Positions 6,407-61,518 of a stretch of 64,000 bases of DNA are shown piece after piece (position 1 is the first letter of the stretch; each line of letters starts with the position of its first letter). Position numbers and translations under genes: made by a program. The notes below the pieces were generated by a model. It did not search any database. It was given only the letters and a program-made list of their open reading frames with translations, and was not told where the DNA came from. This DNA is from Dehalococcoidia bacterium (GTDB taxonomy: Bacteria; Chloroflexota; Dehalococcoidia; Lucifugimonadales; JADFKI01), in contig OY730226.1 of the NCBI GenBank assembly GCA_963422525.1, positions 958,453 to 1,022,452 of the forward strand, read 5' to 3'.

Positions 6407-7611
6407 CGTTGCTCCCGCTGCCCCTGTTCCGTGGATGTAACTTTCGCCTCTATCATACCGCGCGTTAGCGTAATATCTACTACATCGCCGCCGTCAACCT
6501 GTGTATGCTCGCTTACTACGCCGCCGTCGCTGCGCCGTTGCACTATGGCATAACCGCGCCGCAGCGTGTCGCGCGGGCTGAGTGAGTCTAGCCGCAGCTT
6601 CAAACCTTGCGCGCGCTCTGAGTTCAGCGTGAGCATGTGCCTGAGCAATCTTCGCGCGCTTGTGAGCCGGTCGTCTATGTGCAACCGCATCCTGTCGAGG
6701 TCGGGGACCGCGCCCTGGAGACGCCTGTCGAGCTGCCTTGTAGCGTCGATGCTCGCTGCGAGTTGGCGCGATATGTCGGCGTTCAGGCTCTGCGCTGCAC
6801 CGACAGCGAACGCCATCAGTTCAGCCCTGTCCGGCACGGTCAGCTCTGCCGCCGCCGATGGCGTAGGCGCGCGCAGGTCTGCCACCAGATCGGCGATAGT
6901 ATAGTCTGTTTCGTGGCCGACGGCGCTCACGACTGGCGCGGCGCAGGCGTATATCGCCCTCGCCACTTCTTCTTCGTTGAATGCCCATAGGTCTTCCAGC
7001 GAGCCACCGCCGCGCGCCACGATAACGATGCCCACATCGGGTTCGCTGCCGGCGGCGTTCAGCGCCTCGGCGATTGCGGGCGCGGCGTCCTCACCCTGCA
7101 CCGGAGCCGGCGCCAGCGCAAGCTCGACCAGCGGGTAGCGACGGCGTATCACATTCTGGATGTCGTGCCAAACGGAGCCACTTGGCGAGGTAACTACCGC
7201 AATCTTCTTGGGAAAGCGGGGCAGAGCGCGCTTGCGGGATTGCTCGAATAGCCCTTCCTGTTCCAGCTTCATCTTGAGCTGCTCCAGCTTCAGCTGAAGC
7301 TCGCCGACGCCCTCAGGCTGCGCAATGTCCGCAATGATTTGCAGGTCGCCGCGCTGCTCGTATATCGAGATGCGGCCGTGCAGAATTATCGCCGCGCCGT
7401 TATCCAGATGATCAGCGCCGCGCGAGTTGCGAAACATAACGCAGCGCAAAGTGGCTTTGCTGTCGCGGAGGCTGAAGTACGAGTGGCCGGAGCCGGGGCG
7501 CGCAAGGTTGGCGACTTCGCCGCTTACCCACATGTCCTGAAGCAGGCTGTCGCGTTCCAGCGTCTCCCTGGTGTATGACGAAATCTGTGAAACGGAGTAG
7601 ATTGGCGGCAT
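6403..7611 (-). CDS. xseA: Exodeoxyribonuclease VII large subunit
   Basis: 402 aa, with an N-terminal OB-fold region (VSGEVANL..GHSYFSLRD) and a central catalytic region (VVTSPSGSVWHDI, ARGGGSLEDLWAFN). It is followed by xseB. Confidence 0.92.
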   Translation of the reverse strand: MPPIYSVSQISSYTRETLERDSLLQDMWVSGEVANLARPGSGHSYFSLRDSKATLRCVMFRNSRGADHLDNGAAIILHGRISIYEQRGDLQIIADIAQPEGVGELQLKLEQLKMKLEQEGLFEQSRKRALPRFPKKIAVVTSPSGSVWHDIQNVIRRRYPLVELALAPAPVQGEDAAPAIAEALNAAGSEPDVGIVIVARGGGSLEDLWAFNEEEVARAIYACAAPVVSAVGHETDYTIADLVADLRAPTPSAAAELTVPDRAELMAFAVGAAQSLNADISRQLAASIDATRQLDRRLQGAVPDLDRMRLHIDDRLTSARRLLRHMLTLNSERAQGLKLRLDSLSPRDTLRRGYAIVQRRSDGGVVSEHTQVDGGDVVDITLTRGMIEAKVTSTEQGQREQR

Positions 7612-25761: not shown

Positions 25762-25836
25762 TGGTGGCAACGGGTGGGTTCGAACCACCGACCTAACGCT
25801 TATGAAGCGTCCGCTCTGCCCCTGAGCTACGTTGCC
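25762..25836 (-). tRNA. tRNA with CAT anticodon (elongator Met, or Ile2 if lysidine-modified), CCA encoded
   Basis: The minus-strand sequence GGCAACGTAGCTCAGGGGCAGAGCGGACGCTTCATAAGCGTTAGGTCGGTGGTTCGAACCCACCCGTTGCCACCA is 75 nt. It has a 7-bp acceptor stem, a TTCGAA T-loop and an anticodon loop TTCATAA. Position 1:72 is paired, so it is not an initiator tRNA. Confidence 0.92.
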
Positions 25837-50297: not shown

Positions 50298-52592
50298 ATG
50301 GCAAAAGATATTGTAGTCGTAGAATCACCCGCGAAAGCCCGCACGGTCGGGCGCTTTCTTGGCAGCGGATACTCCACGCTTGCCTCGATGGGGCACGTGC
50401 GCGACCTGCCCAAAGGCAAAATGGGCGTAGAAATTGATGATGAAGGCTTCCATCCCACCTACACCGTCATGTCCGACAAGAAGAAGATCGTTACGCAGCT
50501 TCGCAAAGCATCCAAAGATGCCGAGATCGTGTACCTGGCGACCGACCCCGACCGCGAAGGCGAGGCAATATCGTGGCACCTGCTGGACGCCGCGAAAATC
50601 GACGTCTCCAAGGTGAAGCGCGTCGTGTTTCACGAAATCACGAAAGAGGCAATCAGCGAGGCGTTCGACCACCCGCGCGAACTTGACTACAACCTAATCG
50701 ACGCACAGCAGGCGCGCCGCATACTAGATAGGCTTGTCGGCTACCGCCTGAGCCCCGTTCTGTGGGGCAAGGTGAGGCGCGGCTTGTCCGCCGGGCGCGT
50801 GCAATCGGTGGCGCTTCGCCTCGTCGTTGACCGCGAGCGCGAGATTGACGCCTTCACGCCGGTCGAGCACTGGAGCATCGACGCTATGCTCGCCAAGCAG
50901 GCGCTGGTTGATGCCAAGCGTATCGAGTTCAAGGCGGCGCTGCATTCGCTCAAAGACGAGAAGCGGATTGAGATCCCCAACGGCGAACGCGCGAGTGAAT
51001 TGACGACTGACTTGGACGGAGCCGCTTTCAGCGTGGAATCGGTACGGAAACGTGAGACGCGCCGCCGACCGGCAGCCCCGTTCATCACCTCCACATTGCA
51101 GCAGGAAGCCTCCCGCAAACTTCGATTCACCGCGCGCCGCACAATGCAGGTGGCGCAGCAACTCTACGAAGGCTTGGCTATCGGCGACGAAGGTGAAGTC
51201 GGACTCATCACTTATATGCGTACAGACTCCACGAATGTCGCCGCGCCCGCCCTCAAAGAGGCGAGCGACTACATCAAAGCCAAATTCGGCGCAAAGTACG
51301 CCCCCAGAGCGCCCCGTACCTACACGAAGAAGGTGAAGGGCGCGCAAGAAGCGCATGAAGCCGTTCGCCCGACATCCATACTGCGCGCGCCGCAGGACAT
51401 CCGCGCATACCTGAACAACGAGCAATTCAGACTGTACGACCTTATCTGGAAACGCATGCTAGCAAGCCAGATGACGGATGCGCTCTTCGACTCCACCAGA
51501 GTTGACATCACCGCCAAGAGCGGCAAATCGTCGAACGAGTATCTCTTCCGCGCCACCGGCTCCGTCCTGAAGTTCGCCGGCTTCCGCACGCTCTACATGG
51601 AAGGCTCTGACGACAACGACGACGCCGATGAGGACACGCCCCCGCTGCCGGATCTTGCTAACGGCGATTCGCTGGACTGCCTCGGCATTACGCCCGACCA
51701 GCACTTCACGCAGCCGCCGCCGCGCTTCACCGAGCCGACGCTCATTCGTGCCTTAGAAGAGCGAGGCATCGGCAGACCAAGCACCTATGCCCCCATCATG
51801 AGCACCATCATGGACAGGGACTATGTCCTTAAGGACGGCGGAAGATTCGTTCCGACAAGGCTTGGCATCGTCGTTACCGACCTGCTCACCGCCAACTTTC
51901 CGGATGTGATGAATGTAGGCTTCACGGCGACGATGGAGCAGCAGCTCGACAACATCGCCGAAGGTCAGCGCGCTTGGGAGCCGATGTTGAAAGAGTTCTA
52001 CGAGCCCTTCGACCAGCTCATCGAAAAGACGATGAAAGAGGCAGAGCGCGTGCCGCGTGAGCTTCTCGAAGAGGAGACCGGAGAGTTCTGCGAGAAGTGC
52101 GAAAACCCAATGGTCATCAAGTCCGGTCGCTTTGGGCGATTCATGGCATGCAAAGGCTACCCGGAGTGCAAGAACACTCGCCCGATAGAGTCGGACGAAG
52201 AGCGCGCGATCAGAGTGCGCGTAAGCGAAGAGACGGATGCCCACTGCGAAAAGTGCGAACGACCTATGGTAGTGAAATCCGGCCGTAACGGGCGCTTCCT
52301 CGCTTGCAGCGGCTATCCGGAGTGCAAGAACGCCAAACCACTGCCCGTCGGCGTCGATTGCCCGAAGTGCGGCGGTGAGCTGGTGGAGCGCAAGCAGCGC
52401 GGTCGCAATGGCAAGATATTCTACGGCTGCGTTAACTATCCTGAATGCAAGACGGTGGTCAACCCGCTGCCGCAGCCCTGCCCCGACTGCGGCGAACTAC
52501 TCGCCTCCGCGGGGCGCGGCAAGGCTCGCTGCCTGGATGATGCCTGTGGCTATGAGGGCGCTGTGCCGCAGGCTGAGACGGCGGCCGTGTAA
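50298..52592 (+). CDS. topA: DNA topoisomerase I
   Basis: Toprim start VVVESPAKA, the active-site tyrosine region ITYMRTDST, and four C-terminal CxxC...CxxC zinc ribbons. ATG at 50298 after GAGGAAG. Confidence 0.95.
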   Translation: MAKDIVVVESPAKARTVGRFLGSGYSTLASMGHVRDLPKGKMGVEIDDEGFHPTYTVMSDKKKIVTQLRKASKDAEIVYLATDPDREGEAISWHLLDAAKIDVSKVKRVVFHEITKEAISEAFDHPRELDYNLIDAQQARRILDRLVGYRLSPVLWGKVRRGLSAGRVQSVALRLVVDREREIDAFTPVEHWSIDAMLAKQALVDAKRIEFKAALHSLKDEKRIEIPNGERASELTTDLDGAAFSVESVRKRETRRRPAAPFITSTLQQEASRKLRFTARRTMQVAQQLYEGLAIGDEGEVGLITYMRTDSTNVAAPALKEASDYIKAKFGAKYAPRAPRTYTKKVKGAQEAHEAVRPTSILRAPQDIRAYLNNEQFRLYDLIWKRMLASQMTDALFDSTRVDITAKSGKSSNEYLFRATGSVLKFAGFRTLYMEGSDDNDDADEDTPPLPDLANGDSLDCLGITPDQHFTQPPPRFTEPTLIRALEERGIGRPSTYAPIMSTIMDRDYVLKDGGRFVPTRLGIVVTDLLTANFPDVMNVGFTATMEQQLDNIAEGQRAWEPMLKEFYEPFDQLIEKTMKEAERVPRELLEEETGEFCEKCENPMVIKSGRFGRFMACKGYPECKNTRPIESDEERAIRVRVSEETDAHCEKCERPMVVKSGRNGRFLACSGYPECKNAKPLPVGVDCPKCGGELVERKQRGRNGKIFYGCVNYPECKTVVNPLPQPCPDCGELLASAGRGKARCLDDACGYEGAVPQAETAAV

Positions 52593-52683
52593 CCGCCGCC
52601 GCATACTCTCATTATACCCGGGGTTGCTGCCAGAGCGCCCTTTCTGTCAAACTTCGGCCCCGCCTAACTGCATTACAAGCCGG

Positions 52684-53628
52684 ATGTGCGCTTTGCGACT
52701 GCGCCTGTTTGCTATCTTCACTATCCTGTCCCTGCTGCTCATCGCCTGCGACATGCCGGCGGCGAGCAGCCCTGTGTTGCCGTCCCCTGTGCCGACCGCC
52801 ACGCCGCGCGCAACTGCCACGCCTACACCGCCGCCGCCGCCCACTCCAACGGCAGTGCCCACACCGCCGCCGACACCCACGGCAATGCCCACGCCGCCGC
52901 CGATACCCGCCCCAACGGCAGCCGCCATCAGCAGCGCCGCGCCGCCGGACGACACTCCGGGCGCAATCATAGACGCAGCCCTAGTCAACATGCGCAGGCT
53001 TACCTCCTTCCACGCCGATGTGGACGCCGTCTTCAAGGTCGTCCAGACCGAAGCAAGCTTCAGGATGGATGAGCAGACTTTTGGATCTGAGTTCCCCATC
53101 CGCTTCACCGGGGACTTCCAGTCGCCTGATCGCGCCGCCGGCAAGTTGCTGCTGTCGCTCGGTTTCGCAGCCCTCGAAGTGGACATCATCACGATAGGCG
53201 ACGACGCCTACATCACCAATCCTGAAACGGGCATCTGGGAGAGATACCCCCTCATCTACACGGGCATGCCGGACCCCTACGACTTCGTGCTGCTCCCTGT
53301 AGGCGCATCGCGTTACACCGACATTCAAGTCGTAGGCGACAAGACGATTGACGACGTACAGACACAGCACATCAAGGCGAACTTGCACGCCAGCGTACTC
53401 GGCAACTCTTACGACAACCTCTATCTGCAGATGTGGATAGGGGTAGAGGACAACCTCATACGCCGCTTGAGCATAGCAGGCGAAACCACCGCAGACGCGC
53501 AAGACTCCGCAGGCTTGGCAGGCAGCTCGCTCGGCGCAGACGACATCGGCGGCAAAGTCGAATTCAGCATGACCGTAACCTACTCCAACTTCAACCTGCC
53601 TCTAGCAATTGAGCCGCCTATCCAGTAA
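52684..53628 (+). CDS. Putative lipoprotein with a Thr/Pro-rich linker
   Basis: Lipobox LLLIAC after a basic/hydrophobic signal (MCALRLRLFAIFTILS), a long TP-rich linker, then a globular domain of about 200 aa (possibly LolA/LppX-like; I cannot confirm this). The upstream ORF-track extension overlaps topA. Confidence 0.65.
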   Translation: MCALRLRLFAIFTILSLLLIACDMPAASSPVLPSPVPTATPRATATPTPPPPPTPTAVPTPPPTPTAMPTPPPIPAPTAAAISSAAPPDDTPGAIIDAALVNMRRLTSFHADVDAVFKVVQTEASFRMDEQTFGSEFPIRFTGDFQSPDRAAGKLLLSLGFAALEVDIITIGDDAYITNPETGIWERYPLIYTGMPDPYDFVLLPVGASRYTDIQVVGDKTIDDVQTQHIKANLHASVLGNSYDNLYLQMWIGVEDNLIRRLSIAGETTADAQDSAGLAGSSLGADDIGGKVEFSMTVTYSNFNLPLAIEPPIQ

Positions 53629-54280: not shown

Positions 54281-55143
54281 GGCATTCTCTACAGGGGTTA
54301 AAGTGGTGTGGTGCGTCGCGCTGTATGCAAATAGCGAGGCGACGCTAAATCGGGGGGCTGATGTCAGCGCGTCCATACAGCGAAGACAGGCAGCGTCGGC
54401 GCTGTGGCAGCAACCGGCTGCGCAAGTACGGACATCCTAGGGGCAGGCAGCCGTACAGTTGCGGCGATTCCCACTGCAAGTTCACCACCGAAGGTAGCCG
54501 CAGTTACTATTCGGAGGCTGTGAAGCGGCAGGCATTGAGCCTGTACGGAGAAGGTATGAGCGTATCCGCGATAAGCGGGATGATAGGGTGATGGAGGTGA
54601 AACTGTGCGCTGCGCCCCCGTGGGTCAAAGAAAGTCTGTCAGTCGGATGCGGCGGTGAAATTGGAGCGCAGGCGGCGGTGGGCGGTCGGCAAGCCCGCTA
54701 AGGTCATATCCTTTGATGAGATGCGGACATATGTATGTTCAAAGGCGCAAGGGCAAGCATAATTCGGTATGAGGATGGATATATGGATATGGTCGTAGTA
54801 GAAGATGGGTATGGCAGTCTGTGGCATATCTATGAGGTGGGAGGTCGTGATGAGGCTGCCTTTGTGAAACTATATGAGAGTATGCATGATGCGAGGCTGA
54901 GGCTGTATAGGAGCGGTGGCTACAATGCGAACGGGTGGTTGCCATCTGATAGGAGCAAGGTAGGCAAAGGCAGCGAAGTGAACAGGAATGAGGGGTTGGG
55001 CTCTGTGTTGAGGGACAAGTTGAACAGGCTGGTTCGCAAGACGAAGGGCTGCTCAAAGAGCATACGGACGCCGGACGCTTCGTTGGCGCCGATATGGGCA
55101 AGACAAGGCTGGATCTGACACTTCAACGCTTATAGAGAATGCC
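54281..55143 (+). mobile_element. IS1-family insertion sequence, decayed
   Basis: Terminal inverted repeats: GGCATTCTCTACAGGGGTTAAAGTG (54281->) against the reverse complement of 55143<- GGCATTCTCTATAAGCGTTGAAGTG (20/25 identical, first 11 perfect). An internal IS1-type transposase is broken into several frames. No target-site duplication is visible. Confidence 0.75.
54361..55118 (+). pseudogene. IS1-family transposase (InsA/InsB-like), interrupted by stop codons and frameshifts
   Basis: InsA-like zinc finger plus HTH (CGSNRLRKYG...YSCGDSHCKF, ALSLYGEGMSVSAISGMIG). InsB-like pieces lie in different frames (VISFDEMRTYVCSK, IWIW, EVGGRDEAAFVKLY, NRNEGLGSVLRDKLNRLVRKTKGCSKS). There are more breaks than the single programmed frameshift of IS1. 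Confidence 0.75.
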
Positions 55144-55183: not shown

Positions 55184-55213
55184 AAAAAAGAGGGCAAGGC
55201 CGTAGCCCTGCCC
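55184..55213 (-). terminator. Rho-independent terminator of the candidate tracrRNA
   Basis: On the minus strand: GGGCAGGGC-UACG-GCCUUGCCC (9-bp stem, one G.U) followed by UCUUUUUU. Confidence 0.7.
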
Positions 55214-55303
55214 AATTTTATGCCATAAGTCTTGTTAACGGTTGGTACTCTCGCTGACGCGATTTCCCCAAGGTTCCCCGATCTCCCTTCGGCTACAACC
55301 ATT
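55184..55303 (-). ncRNA. Candidate tracrRNA (5' end approximate)
   Basis: The minus-strand RNA would read AAUGGUUGUAGCCGAAGGGAGAUCGGGGAAC-[28 nt]-CAACCGUUAACAAGACUUAUGGCAUAAAAUUGGGCAGGGCUACGGCCUUGCCCUCUUUUUU. The first block pairs with repeat nt 10-36 and the second with repeat nt 1-10 of a minus-strand crRNA, and the RNA ends in a strong intrinsic terminator. The spurious ORF 55159..55344(-) translates to VVAEGRSGN, mirroring IIAEGRSGNNRN from the array. Confidence 0.6.
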
Positions 55304-55436
55304 GGTATAACATATAGCCTTATGCGCACGGGAGAGCATATCATTGTTTTAATGTAGAGGCAATCCTGAATAAGGTATGCTTGCGCCTAAATTGGGTGCA
55401 AGCAGATTGGGCAAGTGACTTGATAAGGAGAGCATT

Positions 55437-58400
55437 ATGAGTACGAATAACGTGAAGTATAGGCTCGGACTTGATATGGGCACGAACTCCATTGGATGGG
55501 CGGCTGTCAAACTTGATACGGATGACAAACCCTGCGGAATACTGGATATGGGCGTCCGTATCTTCCCTGACGGGCGTAACCCAACGGACAAGACGTCCAA
55601 CGCTGTGGAGCGCAGACTTGCGCGTGGACAGCGGCGGCGGCGCGACCGCTACTTGAAGCGCCGTGAAAAACTTTTAAGCGCGCTTGTCGAATACGGCTTG
55701 ATGCCGCAGGACGAGAATGAGCGCAAGGCTATCGCCAATGATAACCTGCTAGACCCTTACGAACTCAGGGCGCGCGCCCTTGACTATCCGCTGAGCCCCT
55801 TCGAATTGGGACGATCTATATTCCATATCGATCAGCGGCGTGGCTTCAAGTCGAACCGCAAAGCGGCGGGCGATGACAACGAAGCCCAAAAGACGCGCGC
55901 CGATATAGATGAACTTCGCCGTCGCATCGCGCAAAGCGGCGCTCGAACGCTAGGCGAATACCTAGCACGCCGTCGCAAGAAGAGCAAAGCCGTCCGAGCG
56001 CGGCCCGATATGGGACTATATCCCGACCGCGCTCTGTACGAGGATGAGTTCGGCAAGATACAGGCAATCCAACAGCCGCATCAAAATCTCAATGACGAAA
56101 ATTGGGACAACTTGCGCAAAATCATATTCTACCAGCGCCCCTTGGAACCTGTGGACTCCGGATGGTGTCTGTTCGAGGACGGAGAGCGTCGTGCGGAGCG
56201 CGCTCTGCCGCTGTTCCAAGAGTTCCGCATGCTTCAAGAAGTCGCCAATCTCAAAATACGGGTTGGCGCGGAGCCGGACCGTTTCCTACATCACGACGAG
56301 CGTGAGCGCGCTATGGAGCGGCTGCGCTCCGGCAAAGACATAACTCTCAGCAAAGGCAAGAACAACACGGCCGCCAACCCCACAAGAGACTTGGGTCTGC
56401 CGTCAGGCGCTACTTTCAATCTTGCCGCCGGTGGCCGCAAAGCAATCAAGGGCGATGAGACGGCAGCAAAGTTAGCGGCGAAACCAAAGACCGAGACGGA
56501 AAAGAAGCCGGCTGAGCCGGGCTTGTTCGGCAAGAAATGGCTTATCCTTTTACTCGACGAGCGCAATGAAATCGTGAAGTTCCTGCTGAATACTGAAGAA
56601 CCGGACGCAGTTCGTGAGAAGGCGATTGCCGATTGGGGGCTGAATGAAGCGCAGGCCGTCGCCGTATCCAATGTCTCGCTCGTGAGCGGCTACGGCAACC
56701 TGAGCGAAAAAGCCATCCGAAAGATACGCCCACACATGCAGAAAGGGTTAGGATACTCGGATGCGGTTCTTGCCGCCGGATACCTCCACCATTCGGACTT
56801 CCGAAACGCCGAATCCCGTGAAAGGCTGCCCTACTACGGCGAAGTTCTCCCCCGAGACGCGGTAGGCGCTGATCCGACCAAAGACCCTGAGAAAGACGGC
56901 GAACCCGCGCGCTACGGTCGCATCGCCAACCCAACCGTGCATATCGGACTGAACCAGTTGCGCCGCGTCGTCAATCGCCTGACGGAGGTTCACGGCAAGC
57001 CGGAAGAGATAGTCGTCGAGCTGGCGCGCGACCTCAAGATGAGCCGTGAACAGAAACGCAACTACGAGCAGCGTCAAAATGAGGGCGGCGATCGCAACGA
57101 GCGTTTTAGGAAGATGCTAGAAGAATCTGGATTAACCGTATCCGCGAACACGCTTCGCAAGCTTCGTCTGTGGGAAGAGCAAGGGCCACCCCAGAAGCGG
57201 ATTTGTCCGTACAGCGGGAAGCCTTTATCCTTCGGCATGGTGGTGTCTGCGCAGACCGAGATTGATCACATCCTGCCATTCTCCCGCACCCTGGACAACT
57301 CAGTGAGCAACATGGTCGTCTGCATGGTCGCCGCCAACCGCGCGAAAGGCAACAGGTCGCCCTACGAAGCGTTCGGGCACAATCCGCCCGGATACTACTA
57401 CGACGAGATACTCGCCAATGTCGCAGATTTTCCCGGCAACAAGCGCTGGCGCTTCCAGACGGACGCCATGGAACGCTTCGAGAGCGATGACGCATTTCTC
57501 GACCGCCAGCTGAACGAAACGCAGTACCTGTCCAGAACCGCCCGCACATATCTTGCCCATCTGTACGACGAGAAAACAGAGGGCAAGCAGAGAGCGCGCG
57601 CCATCCCGGGGCGCATGACGGCTCTGCTCAGGCGCGGCTGGGGACTGAACGGCATGCTGAGCGAGTTTGGGGAAGATGAGACCACTCGCAAGCAGCGCGA
57701 CGACCATCGGCACCACGCGATAGACGCCTTCGTGGTTGCGAATACGACGCCAGGATTGCTTCACCAATTCGCAAGAGCCGCCGGCTCATCCTGGCAGGAC
57801 GCGGCAAAGAGCCTCGCAAAATTGACGCCGCCACCCTGGGAAGGCTTCAGCAGAGAGCATCTAAAACCGTACCTCGACAACATCGTCGTATCCTACAAGC
57901 CTGACCACGGAACGCGCGGCGTTAAGGCAGGCGGCGCAACCACCGGCCAACTGCACAACGAAACTGCTTACGGGATCATAGAACTGGTTGAAGATGGCCA
58001 GTCTGAAATAGTAGCGCGCAAGCCCCTTTCATCAATCAGTCGCAAAGCATTGGATGGCGTGCGAGACCCTGCGCTAAAATCTGCGCTCCTAGAACTTTGG
58101 GACGAAGTTGGCGGCAGTAAGTCCAAATTCGCAGAACGCGCTGAACATAAAGGGGTCTTAATGAACGGACGGCGCCAGAAGGTACGGCGTGTCAGGATTG
58201 TCGAAACACAGCGCGTCATACCAATCAGAGACGGCGCTGGGAATCCGTACAAAGCCTATTTGCCGGGCGGCAATGAGTTCGCCGATATATGGCGGATGCG
58301 CGACGGGAGCTGGCGAACGATCGTCATCCCCACCTTCGACGCCAACCAGCCTGACTTTGACATCGAAAAGTTTCGCCCCAAAACGACTAAAGGCAAGCAT

Positions 58401-58730
58401 AAGGGAAAACCTGACCCAGCCGCGAGGCGACTTATGCGGCTTCAGATAGATGACATGGGGGCCTTCGGAGAGGGGATAGAACGCCGCGTCGTGCGAGTTC
58501 GGAAAATCACAAATGCCAAAGCAGGCGTATCCGTCGTACTGGATGAACATAATGAAGCCAATGTTCCTGCTCGTATAACGCGAGATATGCGTATACGAAG
58601 GGAAACAGGCATAGACGCTGGCATGAAAGAAAAAGCGTACTCCACTCAACAACTCCGCAGACTTGGCTTCCGCAAGATACATGTGGACGAGATAGGGCGC
58701 GTGCGCGACCCTAGACCATTTGCGTCATGA
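55437..58730 (+). CDS. cas9: Cas9, compact type II-C-like (1097 aa)
   Basis: RuvC-I GLDMGTNSIGWA (D13), Arg-rich bridge helix RRLARGQRRRRDRYLKRR, RuvC-II IVVELARD (E528), HNH EIDHILPF...SNMVV...ANRAKGNRSP (H611, N634), RuvC-III HHAIDAF (H760, D763). AAGGAG RBS. It overlaps cas1 by 4 nt. Confidence 0.95.
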   Translation: MSTNNVKYRLGLDMGTNSIGWAAVKLDTDDKPCGILDMGVRIFPDGRNPTDKTSNAVERRLARGQRRRRDRYLKRREKLLSALVEYGLMPQDENERKAIANDNLLDPYELRARALDYPLSPFELGRSIFHIDQRRGFKSNRKAAGDDNEAQKTRADIDELRRRIAQSGARTLGEYLARRRKKSKAVRARPDMGLYPDRALYEDEFGKIQAIQQPHQNLNDENWDNLRKIIFYQRPLEPVDSGWCLFEDGERRAERALPLFQEFRMLQEVANLKIRVGAEPDRFLHHDERERAMERLRSGKDITLSKGKNNTAANPTRDLGLPSGATFNLAAGGRKAIKGDETAAKLAAKPKTETEKKPAEPGLFGKKWLILLLDERNEIVKFLLNTEEPDAVREKAIADWGLNEAQAVAVSNVSLVSGYGNLSEKAIRKIRPHMQKGLGYSDAVLAAGYLHHSDFRNAESRERLPYYGEVLPRDAVGADPTKDPEKDGEPARYGRIANPTVHIGLNQLRRVVNRLTEVHGKPEEIVVELARDLKMSREQKRNYEQRQNEGGDRNERFRKMLEESGLTVSANTLRKLRLWEEQGPPQKRICPYSGKPLSFGMVVSAQTEIDHILPFSRTLDNSVSNMVVCMVAANRAKGNRSPYEAFGHNPPGYYYDEILANVADFPGNKRWRFQTDAMERFESDDAFLDRQLNETQYLSRTARTYLAHLYDEKTEGKQRARAIPGRMTALLRRGWGLNGMLSEFGEDETTRKQRDDHRHHAIDAFVVANTTPGLLHQFARAAGSSWQDAAKSLAKLTPPPWEGFSREHLKPYLDNIVVSYKPDHGTRGVKAGGATTGQLHNETAYGIIELVEDGQSEIVARKPLSSISRKALDGVRDPALKSALLELWDEVGGSKSKFAERAEHKGVLMNGRRQKVRRVRIVETQRVIPIRDGAGNPYKAYLPGGNEFADIWRMRDGSWRTIVIPTFDANQPDFDIEKFRPKTTKGKHKGKPDPAARRLMRLQIDDMGAFGEGIERRVVRVRKITNAKAGVSVVLDEHNEANVPARITRDMRIRRETGIDAGMKEKAYSTQQLRRLGFRKIHVDEIGRVRDPRPFAS

Positions 58731-59623
58731 TAGGCAGAGTAATCGAGATAGCCAACGATGGGCGGCATCTCGCGCGCTCACGCGGGTTCATGACGGTATC
58801 CGTAAATGGCGAGGAACAGGGGCGCATCCCGCTGGACGACATAGCCGTTCTGCTCTGCAACGCGCGTGGTATGACCTACTCCAACGGGCTTATGACCGAG
58901 CTGGCGCGGCGCGGTTCTATCGTCGTGCTGTGCGGTCCTAATTATATGCCGACCGCCTGGATATGGCCCTTGGAAGGTCACCACCTGCAAACCCTGCGTA
59001 TGCGCTGCCAGTTGGAAGCGTCCAAGCCGCTGCGCAAACGCTTGTGGCAGATGATAATCAAAGCGAAGATTACGCAGCAGAGCAACACGCTCGATCTGCT
59101 GGAAATACCCGGCAGCAGCCTGAAATCGCTTGTGCGCCGGGTCAGGTCGGGCGACCCCGACAATGTTGAGGCGCAGGCGGCGCGGCTGTACTGGCGGCTT
59201 CTGTTCGGAAACGACTTCAAACGCGAACGCTTTGGCGCTATGCCCAATCCGCTCCTAAACTATGGCTACACCGTGTTGAGGGCGACGGTGGCGCGGGCGG
59301 TCGTCTCCGCCGGACTTCATCCGTCTCTCGGCGTCCATCATCATAATCGCGGCGATGCCATGTGTCTCGTTGACGACCTGATGGAGCCTTTTCGTCCGCT
59401 GATAGATTATGCCGTCGTTCAGCTGGTTGCGGCAGGGTGCGAAGGGGTAACTACAGACGCCAAGCGCGCGCTTGTGGGAGCGCTGGCAACCGACATGCAC
59501 ACGGACAGGGGCGTTTCGCCACTGCAAATCTGTCTGGAGCGCGCCGCTCAAACACTCGCCCAGTCGTTCGAGGACAAAAAGCCTTCGCTCACGTTCCCCG
59601 GCCAGCCCGTAGTGGCGCAATGA
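58727..59623 (+). CDS. cas1: CRISPR-associated endonuclease Cas1 (type II)
   Basis: 298 aa, with LNYGYTVLRATVARAVVSAGLHPSLGVHHHNRGDAMCLVDDLMEPFRP, typical of Cas1 NMENI/type II. Confidence 0.93.
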   Translation: MIGRVIEIANDGRHLARSRGFMTVSVNGEEQGRIPLDDIAVLLCNARGMTYSNGLMTELARRGSIVVLCGPNYMPTAWIWPLEGHHLQTLRMRCQLEASKPLRKRLWQMIIKAKITQQSNTLDLLEIPGSSLKSLVRRVRSGDPDNVEAQAARLYWRLLFGNDFKRERFGAMPNPLLNYGYTVLRATVARAVVSAGLHPSLGVHHHNRGDAMCLVDDLMEPFRPLIDYAVVQLVAAGCEGVTTDAKRALVGALATDMHTDRGVSPLQICLERAAQTLAQSFEDKKPSLTFPGQPVVAQ

Positions 59624-59633
59624 GAGTTGATCG

Positions 59634-59960
59634 GTGCTAAGCGGCTATCGGCTTATGTGGATGATGGTACTCTTTGACCTTCCCGTGCTCACGAAAACAG
59701 AGCGAAAGAACGCCAACAAGTTCAGAAAGTTCCTGCAAGACCAGGGCTTTGACATGTGCCAACTGTCTGTGTACATGCGCTTCTGCGCCGGCAAGGAACA
59801 GACGCAAGTCTATACGCGGCGTGTTCAATCCGCCTTGCCGCCGTCCGGCAATGTGCAGATTATCTATTTTACCGATAAGCAGTACGAGAACATCGTCAGT
59901 TTCAACGGACCGAAAAGAAATCCCTCCAATAAAAATCCGGAGCAGTTCGCGCTATTTTGA
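59634..59960 (+). CDS. cas2: CRISPR-associated endoribonuclease Cas2 (type II)
   Basis: 108 aa. MWMMVLFDLPVLTKTERKNANKFRKFLQDQGFDMCQLSVYMRF matches type II Cas2. GTG start. Confidence 0.9.
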   Translation: MLSGYRLMWMMVLFDLPVLTKTERKNANKFRKFLQDQGFDMCQLSVYMRFCAGKEQTQVYTRRVQSALPPSGNVQIIYFTDKQYENIVSFNGPKRNPSNKNPEQFALF

Positions 59961-60035: not shown

Positions 60036-61518
60036 ATTATAGCCGAGGGGAGATCGGGGAACAACCGCAACAGCTTTGCTTCGGCACGCATGGCGTACCT
60101 GAATTATAGCCGAGGGGAGATCGGGGAACAACCGCAACACCTAGCACGATACGGCACATCGTATCTGATTATAGCCGAGGGGAGATCGGGGAACAACCGC
60201 AACTGAGGCTCAAAGCCGGCGCGGGCCGCAGTGATTATAGCCGAGGGGAGATCGGGGAACAACCGCAACAGTACGGAGATGCACTCGCCGATGCTCACGA
60301 TTATAGCCGAGGGGAGATCGGGGAACAACCGCAACTAGTATCGCATGCGCTTGCATGGCGATTTCATTATAGCCGAGGGGAGATCGGGGAACAACCGCAA
60401 CGTAGTGGCGCGGCGGCGGCATAGATGGTAATTATAGCCGAGGGGAGATCGGGGAACAACCGCAACGCGAGTGGACGGCTCTGTTCTGTTTGCCGATTAT
60501 AGCCGAGGGGAGATCGGGGAACAACCGCAACATAGGCGCGCTCTGGGCACGAGGGCGCTATATTATAGCCGAGGGGAGATCGGGGAACAACCGCAACTGC
60601 GCGGCGCACAGGGGGCTCTATGGGCAATTATAGCCGAGGGGAGATCGGGGAACAACCGCAACAGCGCTCGGAGTTCATCGGCTCGGAGTTTGATTATAGC
60701 CGAGGGGAGATCGGGGAACAACCGCAACGGCAAGCGCTTTGTCGAGATACTGGACGCATTATAGCCGAGGGGAGATCGGGGAACAACCGCAACCACTCCG
60801 TAGGACGCCATAGTCGCCGTAGGATTATAGCCGAGGGGAGATCGGGGAACAACCGCAACTATGCCTGAGTTGATGAAATTGTTCCGCTTATTATAGCCGA
60901 GGGGAGATCGGGGAACAACCGCAACAGCACTTTGCGAGTGTGCTGATAGGCTTGGATTATAGCCGAGGGGAGATCGGGGAACAACCGCAACATATCGAGC
61001 TCGTCGTCTTCGAAGGCGTCATTATAGCCGAGGGGAGATCGGGGAACAACCGCAACTACGGCGATGTGCGGCGTCCGTCCACCGAAATTATAGCCGAGGG
61101 GAGATCGGGGAACAACCGCAACTATGTCGTATCGGCGTCCCCCTGCTGCTGAATTATAGCCGAGGGGAGATCGGGGAACAACCGCAACTGTCCAGTGTCT
61201 TTGAGCCACGAGACGCTCATTATAGCCGAGGGGAGATCGGGGAACAACCGCAACCTCAGCATTTGCGTTACGCCGTCCAGATCAATTATAGCCGAGGGGA
61301 GATCGGGGAACAACCGCAACAACTCGGCCCGCGCGTCTGCCACGCTTTTTATTATAGCCGAGGGGAGATCGGGGAACAACCGCAACTACACACGCCGAAC
61401 GCCGTTGTCAAGGGTTATTATAGCCGAGGGGAGATCGGGGAACAACCGCAACAACTCGGCCCGCGCGTCTGCCACGCTTTTTATTATAGCCGAGGGGAGA
61501 TCGGGGAACAACCGCAAC
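60036..61518 (-). CRISPR. CRISPR array: 23 identical 36-nt repeats, 22 spacers of 29-31 nt, predicted to be transcribed on the minus strand
   Basis: The plus-strand repeat is ATTATAGCCGAGGGGAGATCGGGGAACAACCGCAAC, and its minus-strand form is GTTGCGGTTGTTCCCCGATCTCCCCTCGGCTATAAT. Repeat starts: 60036, 60103, 60168, 60234, 60300, 60366, 60431, 60496, 60562, 60627, 60693, 60758, 60824, 60890, 60956, 61021, 61087, 61153, 61219, 61285, 61351, 61417, 61483. Orientation is called from the GTTG start, the TATAAT end and the polarity of the tracrRNA terminator. Confidence 0.97.

Follow-up and report, generated by a model that had tools for sequence, protein, structure and literature searches.

Can a Cas9 guide be built on an anti-repeat that is interrupted by a helix of its own? 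The question is raised by a 64,000-nucleotide (nt) stretch of contig OY730226.1 from a Dehalococcoidia bacterium, the whole of which is here called the window. It holds an intact type II-C CRISPR locus with cas9, cas1, cas2, 23 repeats and a candidate trans-activating CRISPR RNA (tracrRNA) gene. The anti-repeat of this gene lies on the minus strand upstream of cas9 and comes in three segments, which are an upper part, an insert and a lower part. An earlier note on this DNA had proposed a tracrRNA with a split anti-repeat and a guide duplex resembling a three-way junction. In our analysis this proposal is probably right: the minus strand from about 55327 to 55184 would be the tracrRNA gene of the locus, with an anti-repeat split by a hairpin arm, and its duplex with the CRISPR RNA (crRNA) would form a three-way junction. 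From the sequence we infer that the RNA is transcribed with about these ends and is used by Cas9. Its parts, in the order in which they would be read, are the following.

Positions 55335–55363, minus strand: promoter-like site of the tracrRNA, with −35 TTGCCT (55363–55358), a 17-nt spacer and a TG-extended −10 TATGCT (55340–55335).
Positions 55300–55328, minus strand: predicted 5′ leader of the primary tracrRNA, overlapping the plus-strand promoter-like site of cas9.
Positions 55273–55299, minus strand: upper anti-repeat GUUGUAGCCGAAGGGAGAUCGGGGAAC, pairing with repeat nt 10–36.
Positions 55245–55272, minus strand: insert CUUGGGGAAAUCGCGUCAGCGAGAGUAC of 28 nt, the predicted side arm, with a CUU linker and then a hairpin that closes at the start of the lower block.
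Positions 55234–55244, minus strand: lower anti-repeat CAACCGUUAAC, pairing with repeat nt 1–10, a single U being bulged out and one of the pairs being G·U.
Positions 55214–55233, minus strand: AAG, nexus-like segment and linker (AAGACUUAUGGCAUAAAAUU), kept in relatives as AAG-GCC-UUAU-GGC-AC(A/C)AAAU.
Positions 55184–55213, minus strand: intrinsic terminator GGGCAGGGC-UACG-GCCUUGCCC followed by UCUUUUUU, a hairpin of 9 base pairs (bp), 7 of them GC, and U6.

The crRNA-sense repeat, on the minus strand, reads GUUGCGGUUGUUCCCCGAUCUCCCCUCGGCUAUAAU, with the 3′ end TATAAT. On the plus strand, 55273–55299 reads GTTCCCCGATCTCCCTTCGGCTACAAC, which differs at three positions from nt 10–36 of the crRNA-sense repeat (GTTCCCCGATCTCCCCTCGGCTATAAT). 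As a minus-strand RNA this block pairs at 26 of 27 positions, 24 of the pairs being Watson-Crick and 2 U·G, and the position left over is a C/A mismatch. All coordinates and counts given by the earlier note hold. When the 64 kilobases were searched for repeat matches with three mismatches or fewer, 24 were found and 0 expected; 23 belong to the array and the block at 55273–55299 is the only other copy. The lower match, claimed to lie 28 nt further 3′, was also found as described: the minus strand of 55234–55244 (CAACCGTTAAC) forms 10 pairs and one bulge with its partner GUUGCGGUUG, and an exact CTTGTTAACGG occurs once in the window, at this block. The terminator hairpin begins 20 nt past the lower block, again much as had been noted, and spans 55213–55192 on the minus strand with a tail to 55184. 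Thus, the element has an anti-repeat outside the array and near cas9, in divergent orientation to it and ending 138 nt upstream of its start, as well as a structured 3′ tail with an intrinsic terminator, all of which are typical of tracrRNAs. It departs from the contiguous anti-repeat of the canonical Cas9 duplex, with 28–30 tracrRNA nt between the two stems. When the repeat and the candidate were co-folded with RNAcofold, as the earlier note had suggested, the minimum-energy dimer was the proposed three-way junction. In Rfam no match was found at the gathering score, and only chance-level, terminator-driven matches appeared at E values up to 10; this is no argument against a tracrRNA, as these RNAs are too diverse for one model.

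The lower block is the part of the proposal that could most easily be accidental. In 5.7% of shuffles of the 113-nt downstream segment the pairing with repeat nt 1–11 was equally good, and 22% of 113-nt tiles of the window pair with repeat nt 1–11 as well as the 11-nt block does. As it is not significant in the window sequence alone, the claim rests on the comparison with other loci. It could then be argued that only the 27-bp upper duplex is used, with CAACCGUUAAC belonging to the 3′ structure of the tracrRNA and repeat nt 1–9 left unpaired. Besides the chance-level match, this reading has in its favour that in the tracrRNA folded alone the lower block pairs with the 5′ end of the RNA itself. 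The comparative evidence below makes it very improbable, and the lower stem and the bulge are also reportedly the duplex parts that Cas9 needs, the upper stem being dispensable, as Briner and colleagues are said to have found in 2014.

Three sets of loci were compared with the window. Four Dehalococcoidia metagenome-assembled genomes (MAGs) from GTDB (L001–L004) have Cas9 proteins with 58–66% identity to that of the window, while the closest database relatives (L085–L095 and L119–L121), reached through exact-protein look-ups, have 69–93%. Metagenome loci (L005–L084) were collected with generic peptide patterns from the Cas9 alignment; most of them are distant, with 35–50% identity, and these distant loci were used as outgroups. 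The protein search shows more than 100 Cas9 relatives with identities of 60% or higher, 12 of which were brought into the comparison.

Nearly all the loci that have an array carry a tracrRNA gene of the same build just upstream of cas9 and on the opposite strand. These genes share GUUAAC-AAG with the bulged U, a nexus-like GCC-UUAU-GGC, AC(A/C)AAAU and a terminator hairpin, and conservation of the block CAACCGUUAAC(AAG) extends to dozens of II-C relatives. The small nexus-like helix is paired in 78% of cases across the loci and is weak in the window. In L002 (14560–14640) and L004 (14830–14910) the tracrRNA gene is found between cas2 and the array, so it has moved within the clade. In L002, L003 and the approximately 40 outgroup loci with an identifiable tracrRNA the lower block directly abuts the upper anti-repeat and forms an ordinary lower stem; the block of the window is therefore this same lower stem, detached. 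These loci share with the window the GUUAACAAG lower block with its bulged U, the nexus motif and the type of terminator, and for L002 and L003 the Cas9 identity is 58–67%. Relatives with a contiguous anti-repeat, which the earlier note had thought could undo its proposal if they lacked the block, thus exist and yet conserve it.

The pairing between the two RNAs was examined in 22 loci using chimeras resembling single-guide RNAs (sgRNAs), made of the repeat, GAAA and the tracrRNA core, with the partner slid by 1–3 columns as a control. Taken together, the two intermolecular helices were paired in 95.3% of cells, with 11 pairs changed on both sides (31–49% paired in the slid controls). For the upper helix the figure was 94.7%, with 9 pairs changed on both sides, and for the lower helix it was 96.8%, where one pair is UA in 12 loci, CG in 7 and UG in 2 and another is GC in 14 and AU in 1. 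Therefore, the lower block covaries with the repeat, at repeat position 8, which argues against an unpaired repeat nt 1–9 and is in line with a split anti-repeat.

The insert, in turn, is no one-off: besides the window, 20 distinct related loci carry one at exactly this position. It measures 27–31 nt in L085, L086, L089, L087, L090, L092, L093, L094, L095, L001 and L119, 18–20 nt in L091 and L004, and 25–30 nt in a marine subclade (L005, L006, L008, L011, L023, L007 and L009). Folded alone, all 16 of the 16 distinct inserts gave a hairpin closing exactly at the lower block, with z scores down to −4.0. Between the upper stem and the hairpin there is a linker of 2–5 unpaired nt (CUU in the window), rich in U within the Dehalococcoidia subclade, and no spare bases are left between the arm and the lower stem. 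Co-folding was performed on trimmed RNAs, as flanks of 150 nt gave spurious long-range pairings in several loci, and covered 20 arm-bearing loci including the window, the duplicate loci L119–L121 being left out. The minimum-energy dimer was a three-way junction in 20 of 20, with a lower stem of 6–11 bp, an arm of 5–11 bp and an upper stem of 22–26 bp, and a plain duplex in L002 and L003. In the 19 arm-bearing loci other than the window, 18–32 tracrRNA nt separate the stems. Since the arm branches between the upper and lower stems, the crRNA:tracrRNA duplex is predicted to be a three-way junction.

The sequence of the arm changes from lineage to lineage while its helices persist. Its stems are UCUCG/CGAGA, GCCGC/GCGGU, GUCGC/GCGAU, AUGUCGC/GCGACAU, GGGAAUCCC/GGGAUUCCC, GACC/GGUC and GGCC/GGCC, with UCCGC/GUGGA in a Chloroflexi MAG. 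Plain MAFFT mis-registers the arm, and a covariance model was instead built from 13 tracrRNAs and used to re-align 20; a stricter threshold was applied in searches with the model, since the anti-repeat resembles the repeat and every CRISPR repeat was matched. In this model-based alignment the two helices of the arm were 91% and 93% paired, with 8 pairs changed on both sides, and the slid controls were 30–45% paired. The covariation score of the arm was 0.342 compared with 0.122 in shuffles, and none of the 500 shuffles reached it. No kink-turn or other named motif was found by eye in the internal loop of the arm, and the loops are not of one class. The comparison of homologous loci, which the earlier note had named as a check, thus bears it out on both counts, as 55234–55244 covaries with the repeat and the insert is conserved in position with compensatory changes in its arm.

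For the window itself, homology to L086 and L089 gives the arm GG(G)(G)-AAA-UC(G)CG-UCAG-CGAGA-G-U(A)CC, of about 10 bp and with the loop UCAG. The small UCGC/GCGA hairpin that the earlier note had seen can indeed form and, as a shifted 4-bp helix, is the thermodynamic optimum, but by homology the arm is longer than this hairpin. The relative L085, 93% identical, carries the same arm.

Several observations, besides the chance-level pairing of the lower block, weigh against our interpretation. The arm of the window is the weakest of the clade, with a z score of −1.5 and 2 of the 10 pairs of the homology register mismatched; those of L086, L094 and L095 are better formed. The lower stem is mostly invariant, 5 of its 10 pairs never varying, and in the closest relative, L085 (3783–3863), CAACCCUUAAC stands in place of CAACCGUUAAC with an unchanged repeat, so that a C-to-G change breaks the pair with repeat C5. 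The alignment of the arm was fitted to the structure of the model, which favours pairing, and the sequences are related, so that shuffle controls overstate significance; therefore, the numbers for the arm are supportive and are not to be read as a formal probability. No insertion or deletion in Cas9 tracks the arm, as the sole clade-specific block, of 10 amino acids (aa), is also present in the arm-less L002 and L003. Finally, these two loci lie inside the clade and have no arm, so the arm may have no function. Given the two mismatches and the broken lower-stem pair in L085, the arm of the window/L085 lineage looks relaxed rather than optimised.

When did the arm arise? In a neighbour-joining Cas9 tree of 95 sequences, all 20 arm-bearing loci with a usable Cas9 sequence belong to one clade, which comprises Dehalococcoidia/Chloroflexota MAGs and the marine lineage with about 52% Cas9 identity to the window (L006 was misplaced, its open reading frame (ORF) having been mis-extracted, and L119 was not included). 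Within this clade a contiguous anti-repeat is seen only in L002 and L003, L010 and L088 being truncated at contig ends, and no arm was found in any of the approximately 40 outgroup loci whose tracrRNA could be identified. The sequence in L003 and the outgroups is GGGGG-CUUU-CCGUCAAC, which leaves an internal loop of about 3×3 against the repeat UUU/UUG. The arm lineages read GGGGG-CUUU(C)-[arm]-AACCGUUAAC, where repeat U8 and U9 have two new A residues as partners. L002, the sister of the short-armed L004, has GGGGG-CCAACCGUUAAC, which is contiguous and fully paired, as if the arm had been deleted. The series suggests that the strand of the old loop persists as the linker in the arm lineages. 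We read the arm as an expansion of the guide that is specific to this lineage. It apparently entered the ancestral internal loop in one Cas9 clade, selection apparently maintained the helix, and some descendants apparently shortened it or lost it. Searches for phage or viral copies gave 23 matches of the pattern GCTTGTTAACGGYTGS in viral_contigs, none of them a tracrRNA, and a single weak match to the model (L118), inside an ORF and with no array. As a side observation, in L086 and L089 cas9 is directly followed by the array, no cas1 or cas2 being called, and in L086 a solitary repeat stands right after cas9 (near 7280); these two loci may have lost their adaptation module.

How would such a guide work? 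The tracrRNA would pair with each repeat as in other II-C systems. Its 5′ anti-repeat part and repeat nt 10–36 would form the upper stem, and CAACCGUUAAC and repeat nt 1–10 would form the lower, spacer-proximal stem. Cas9 would hold the lower stem, the region of the junction and the nexus, while the arm of about 28 nt would branch from the tracrRNA strand at the place where related guides have a small internal loop. In our view the arm would extend outward from the protein, as a structurally maintained expansion that is tolerated or mildly useful and not an essential contact, because no Cas9 insertion or deletion tracks it, the arm-less loci are nested among arm-bearing ones and its loops vary. 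It might serve the stability of the RNA, the folding of the free tracrRNA, the binding of a factor or a switch, and in the last case the lower anti-repeat would have its first bases contested between the closing GGG/CCC pairs of the arm and repeat G10 and G11.

Two views can be taken of what the arm does. It may be possible, although we lean against it, that the split is real and the insert is a neutral, dispensable expansion, that is, palindromic scrap in a tolerant internal loop with no functional relevance. This would fit the absence of the arm from L002 and L003, its short form in L004 and L091, the two mismatches in the copy shared by the window and L085, the lack of a Cas9 insertion or deletion that correlates with it, and the free variation of its loops (UCAG, GAAA, UAAG, CACG and UCCG). 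However, a drifting insert of 28 nt is not expected to keep both arm helices through compensatory changes across lineages down to about 52% Cas9 identity, and neither the place of the arm nor the way it closes onto the lower block varies. Alternatively, the arm could be a working guide module of the clade, with a role in loading or orthogonality, in positioning RNase III or a host factor, or in a switch; we regard this as rather unlikely.

The neighbourhood of the split anti-repeat bears on the strand of the RNA and on whether the system works, and its features are as follows.

Positions 55315–55320 and 55339–55344, plus strand: cas9 promoter-like site, with TAGCCT, 18 nt and TATCAT, and with homologous sites in L095 and L086.
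Positions 55437–58730, plus strand: cas9, encoding 1097 aa, a type II-C size (TIGR01865, 613 bits).
Positions 58727–59623, plus strand: cas1, NMENI-type, from ORFs and an NCBIfam match.
Positions 59634–59960, plus strand: cas2, from ORFs and an NCBIfam match.
Positions 60036–61518, minus strand in crRNA sense: CRISPR array of 23 identical 36-nt repeats, directly after cas2.
Positions 54281–55143: IS1-family element with 25-nt terminal inverted repeats at 54281–54305 and 55119–55143 (84% complementary).

The earlier note had placed the RNA on the minus strand, and this is supported by the terminator, by the TG-extended −10 in relatives and by the ends of the repeats. The promoter-like site of the window scores 8/12, below the threshold of the scan tool, with a start near 55327 that is predicted rather than mapped. 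In relatives the TG-extended −10 promoter is conserved 35–40 nt upstream of the anti-repeat; the upstream regions of 12 aligned relatives share TTGCAT/TTTGCA and, at the same distance, TGATATACT, and in L086 the homologous site was called by the scan tool on the minus strand (TTTGCA-18-TATACT, with the TG present). Homologous terminator hairpins, differing in stem sequence, were found in all relatives. Among the 56 distinct related II-C repeats, taken from the arrays of L001–L095 and the window, 49 end in TAnnnT in crRNA sense, and the repeats start with GUUG. The TAnnnT end resembles a −10 box carried within each repeat, of the kind described in Neisseria meningitidis, and arrays read opposite to the cas genes have a precedent in N. 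meningitidis and Campylobacter jejuni (PMC3737331).

On the other hand, the symmetry of the complementarity would allow a plus-strand transcript of 55273–55299 to be the partner of an array read on the plus strand. That symmetry is the extent of its support, and it is scarcely credible, as the anti-repeat has no terminator behind it on the plus strand, where the cas9 start comes 138 nt on, while it is the minus strand that carries the conserved nexus, the terminator and the TG-extended −10 promoter, and it is the minus-sense repeats that start with GUUG and end in TAnnnT.

Sites homologous to the plus-strand site of cas9 are TTGGCC-17-TATCAT in L095 and TAGACT-17-TATCAT in L086. A conserved block with overlapping −10 elements on opposite strands (TGaTATACT on the minus and TATCAT on the plus strand), each with its own −35, was seen at 55300–55370 in the window, 3918–3966 in L086 and 2928–2956 in L095, and these elements probably mark divergent promoters of the tracrRNA and cas9. 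In the presumed 5′ untranslated region of cas9 there is also an imperfect inverted repeat at 55370–55400 (GCTTGCGCC...GGGTGCAAGC), which is not conserved in L086.

A system in decay would be another way to explain an interrupted anti-repeat, the tracrRNA being non-working and the IS1 insertion 40 nt away being a further mark of it. The IS1-like element next to the terminator has a transposase split into two decayed frames (54361–54591 and 54735–55118), and the arm of the window is partly degenerate. The inverted repeat at 55119–55143 confirms the distance of 40 bp that the earlier note had measured to the right end of the element. Nevertheless, we find decay improbable. The cas9, cas1 and cas2 genes are full length with catalytic motifs, among them RuvC D13 and HNH DH...N in Cas9, and the 23 repeats are all identical. 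The insertion sequence (IS) lies outside the terminator, its right end 40 nt from the terminator end, and 20 other loci share this interrupted architecture although most of them lack the IS. The IS1 element was also considered as the cause of the split and rejected, as the arm-bearing relatives L086 and L089 have no IS and the same arm, so nothing links the element to the insert. The same IS1 remnant adjoins the tracrRNA gene in L085.

We therefore return to a tracrRNA gene within a II-C locus that is intact. There is no fourth cas gene (csn2 or cas4) besides cas9, cas1 and cas2, hence the assignment to type II-C, and the nearest solved structures to this Cas9 are II-C enzymes, with low identity. 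Within the array one repeat-spacer-repeat unit (spacer AACTCGGCCCGCGCGTCTGCCACGCTTTTT) is present twice in identical form (61285–61386 and 61417–61518) with one other spacer between. Two further features of the window are unrelated to the finding, a 30-nt tandem repeat (2.6–2.7 copies) at 52831–52920, inside the ORF at 52375–53628, and a tRNA gene at 25765–25836 on the minus strand.

If the arm were a working module, the locus would provide the first example in nature of a Cas9 dual guide with a three-way junction. Apart from its function, the split matters in practice. Standard programs that find tracrRNAs and recipes for sgRNAs take the anti-repeat to be contiguous, and once it is located the duplex is shortened and given a tetraloop. 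In this clade they would put the boundaries in the wrong place or drop the lower, spacer-proximal stem that Cas9 enzymes generally need. Sister loci with a long, a short or no arm on similar Cas9 scaffolds offer a natural experiment on what is tolerated at the bulge position. They also point to a natural insertion site for functional RNA modules in compact II-C enzymes, and they document the gain and loss of a guide RNA helix during Cas9 evolution.

Of the known systems, the closest in build is the II-C guide of N. meningitidis, and likewise those of GeoCas9 and CjCas9. Common to them and the window are a Cas9 of about 1,100 aa, the gene order cas9-cas1-cas2-array, to which no further cas gene is added, 36-nt repeats that start with GUUG and end in a −10-like box, an array that in the window would be read opposite to cas9 (compare PMC3737331), and a duplex in which a central irregularity separates the lower stem from a long upper stem, with AAG, a nexus and a terminator after it. 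The difference lies in the irregularity, which is a bulge or internal loop of a few nt in these and other compact II-C guides (the "central bulge" of PMC3737331) and a helical arm of 18–31 nt in the clade of the window. The earlier note had called so large an insertion unusual; this agrees with surveys of guide RNAs, which report bulges at that point, differences in stem length and complex 3′ tails and mention no helix branching from the repeat:anti-repeat duplex. Neither an interrupted anti-repeat nor a branched Cas9 guide duplex was found described in the openly searchable full-text literature, outside of which are subscription-only papers and patents.

Engineered sgRNAs with aptamer hairpins, such as those with MS2 in the tetraloop or stem-loop 2, are similar in that an extra helix on the scaffold leaves the guide-target logic unchanged. 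Those additions are artificial and placed at the ends of helices, whereas the arm in the window is natural and placed at the bulge, a site that is reportedly sensitive in SpCas9 according to the same 2014 work of Briner. The omega-RNAs of IscB and the guides of Cas9d, too, have more helices than a canonical Cas9 sgRNA, but in Cas9d the repeat:anti-repeat helix is a plain one of 17 bp and the extra helices are 3′ of it (PMC11706934). The IscB and Cas9d proteins are also much smaller and depend on their RNA scaffold, whereas the protein of the window is a full-size II-C Cas9. Placed beside these systems, the predicted RNA of the window is supported, from comparison of sequences, as a tracrRNA whose guide duplex would be a variant of new structure.

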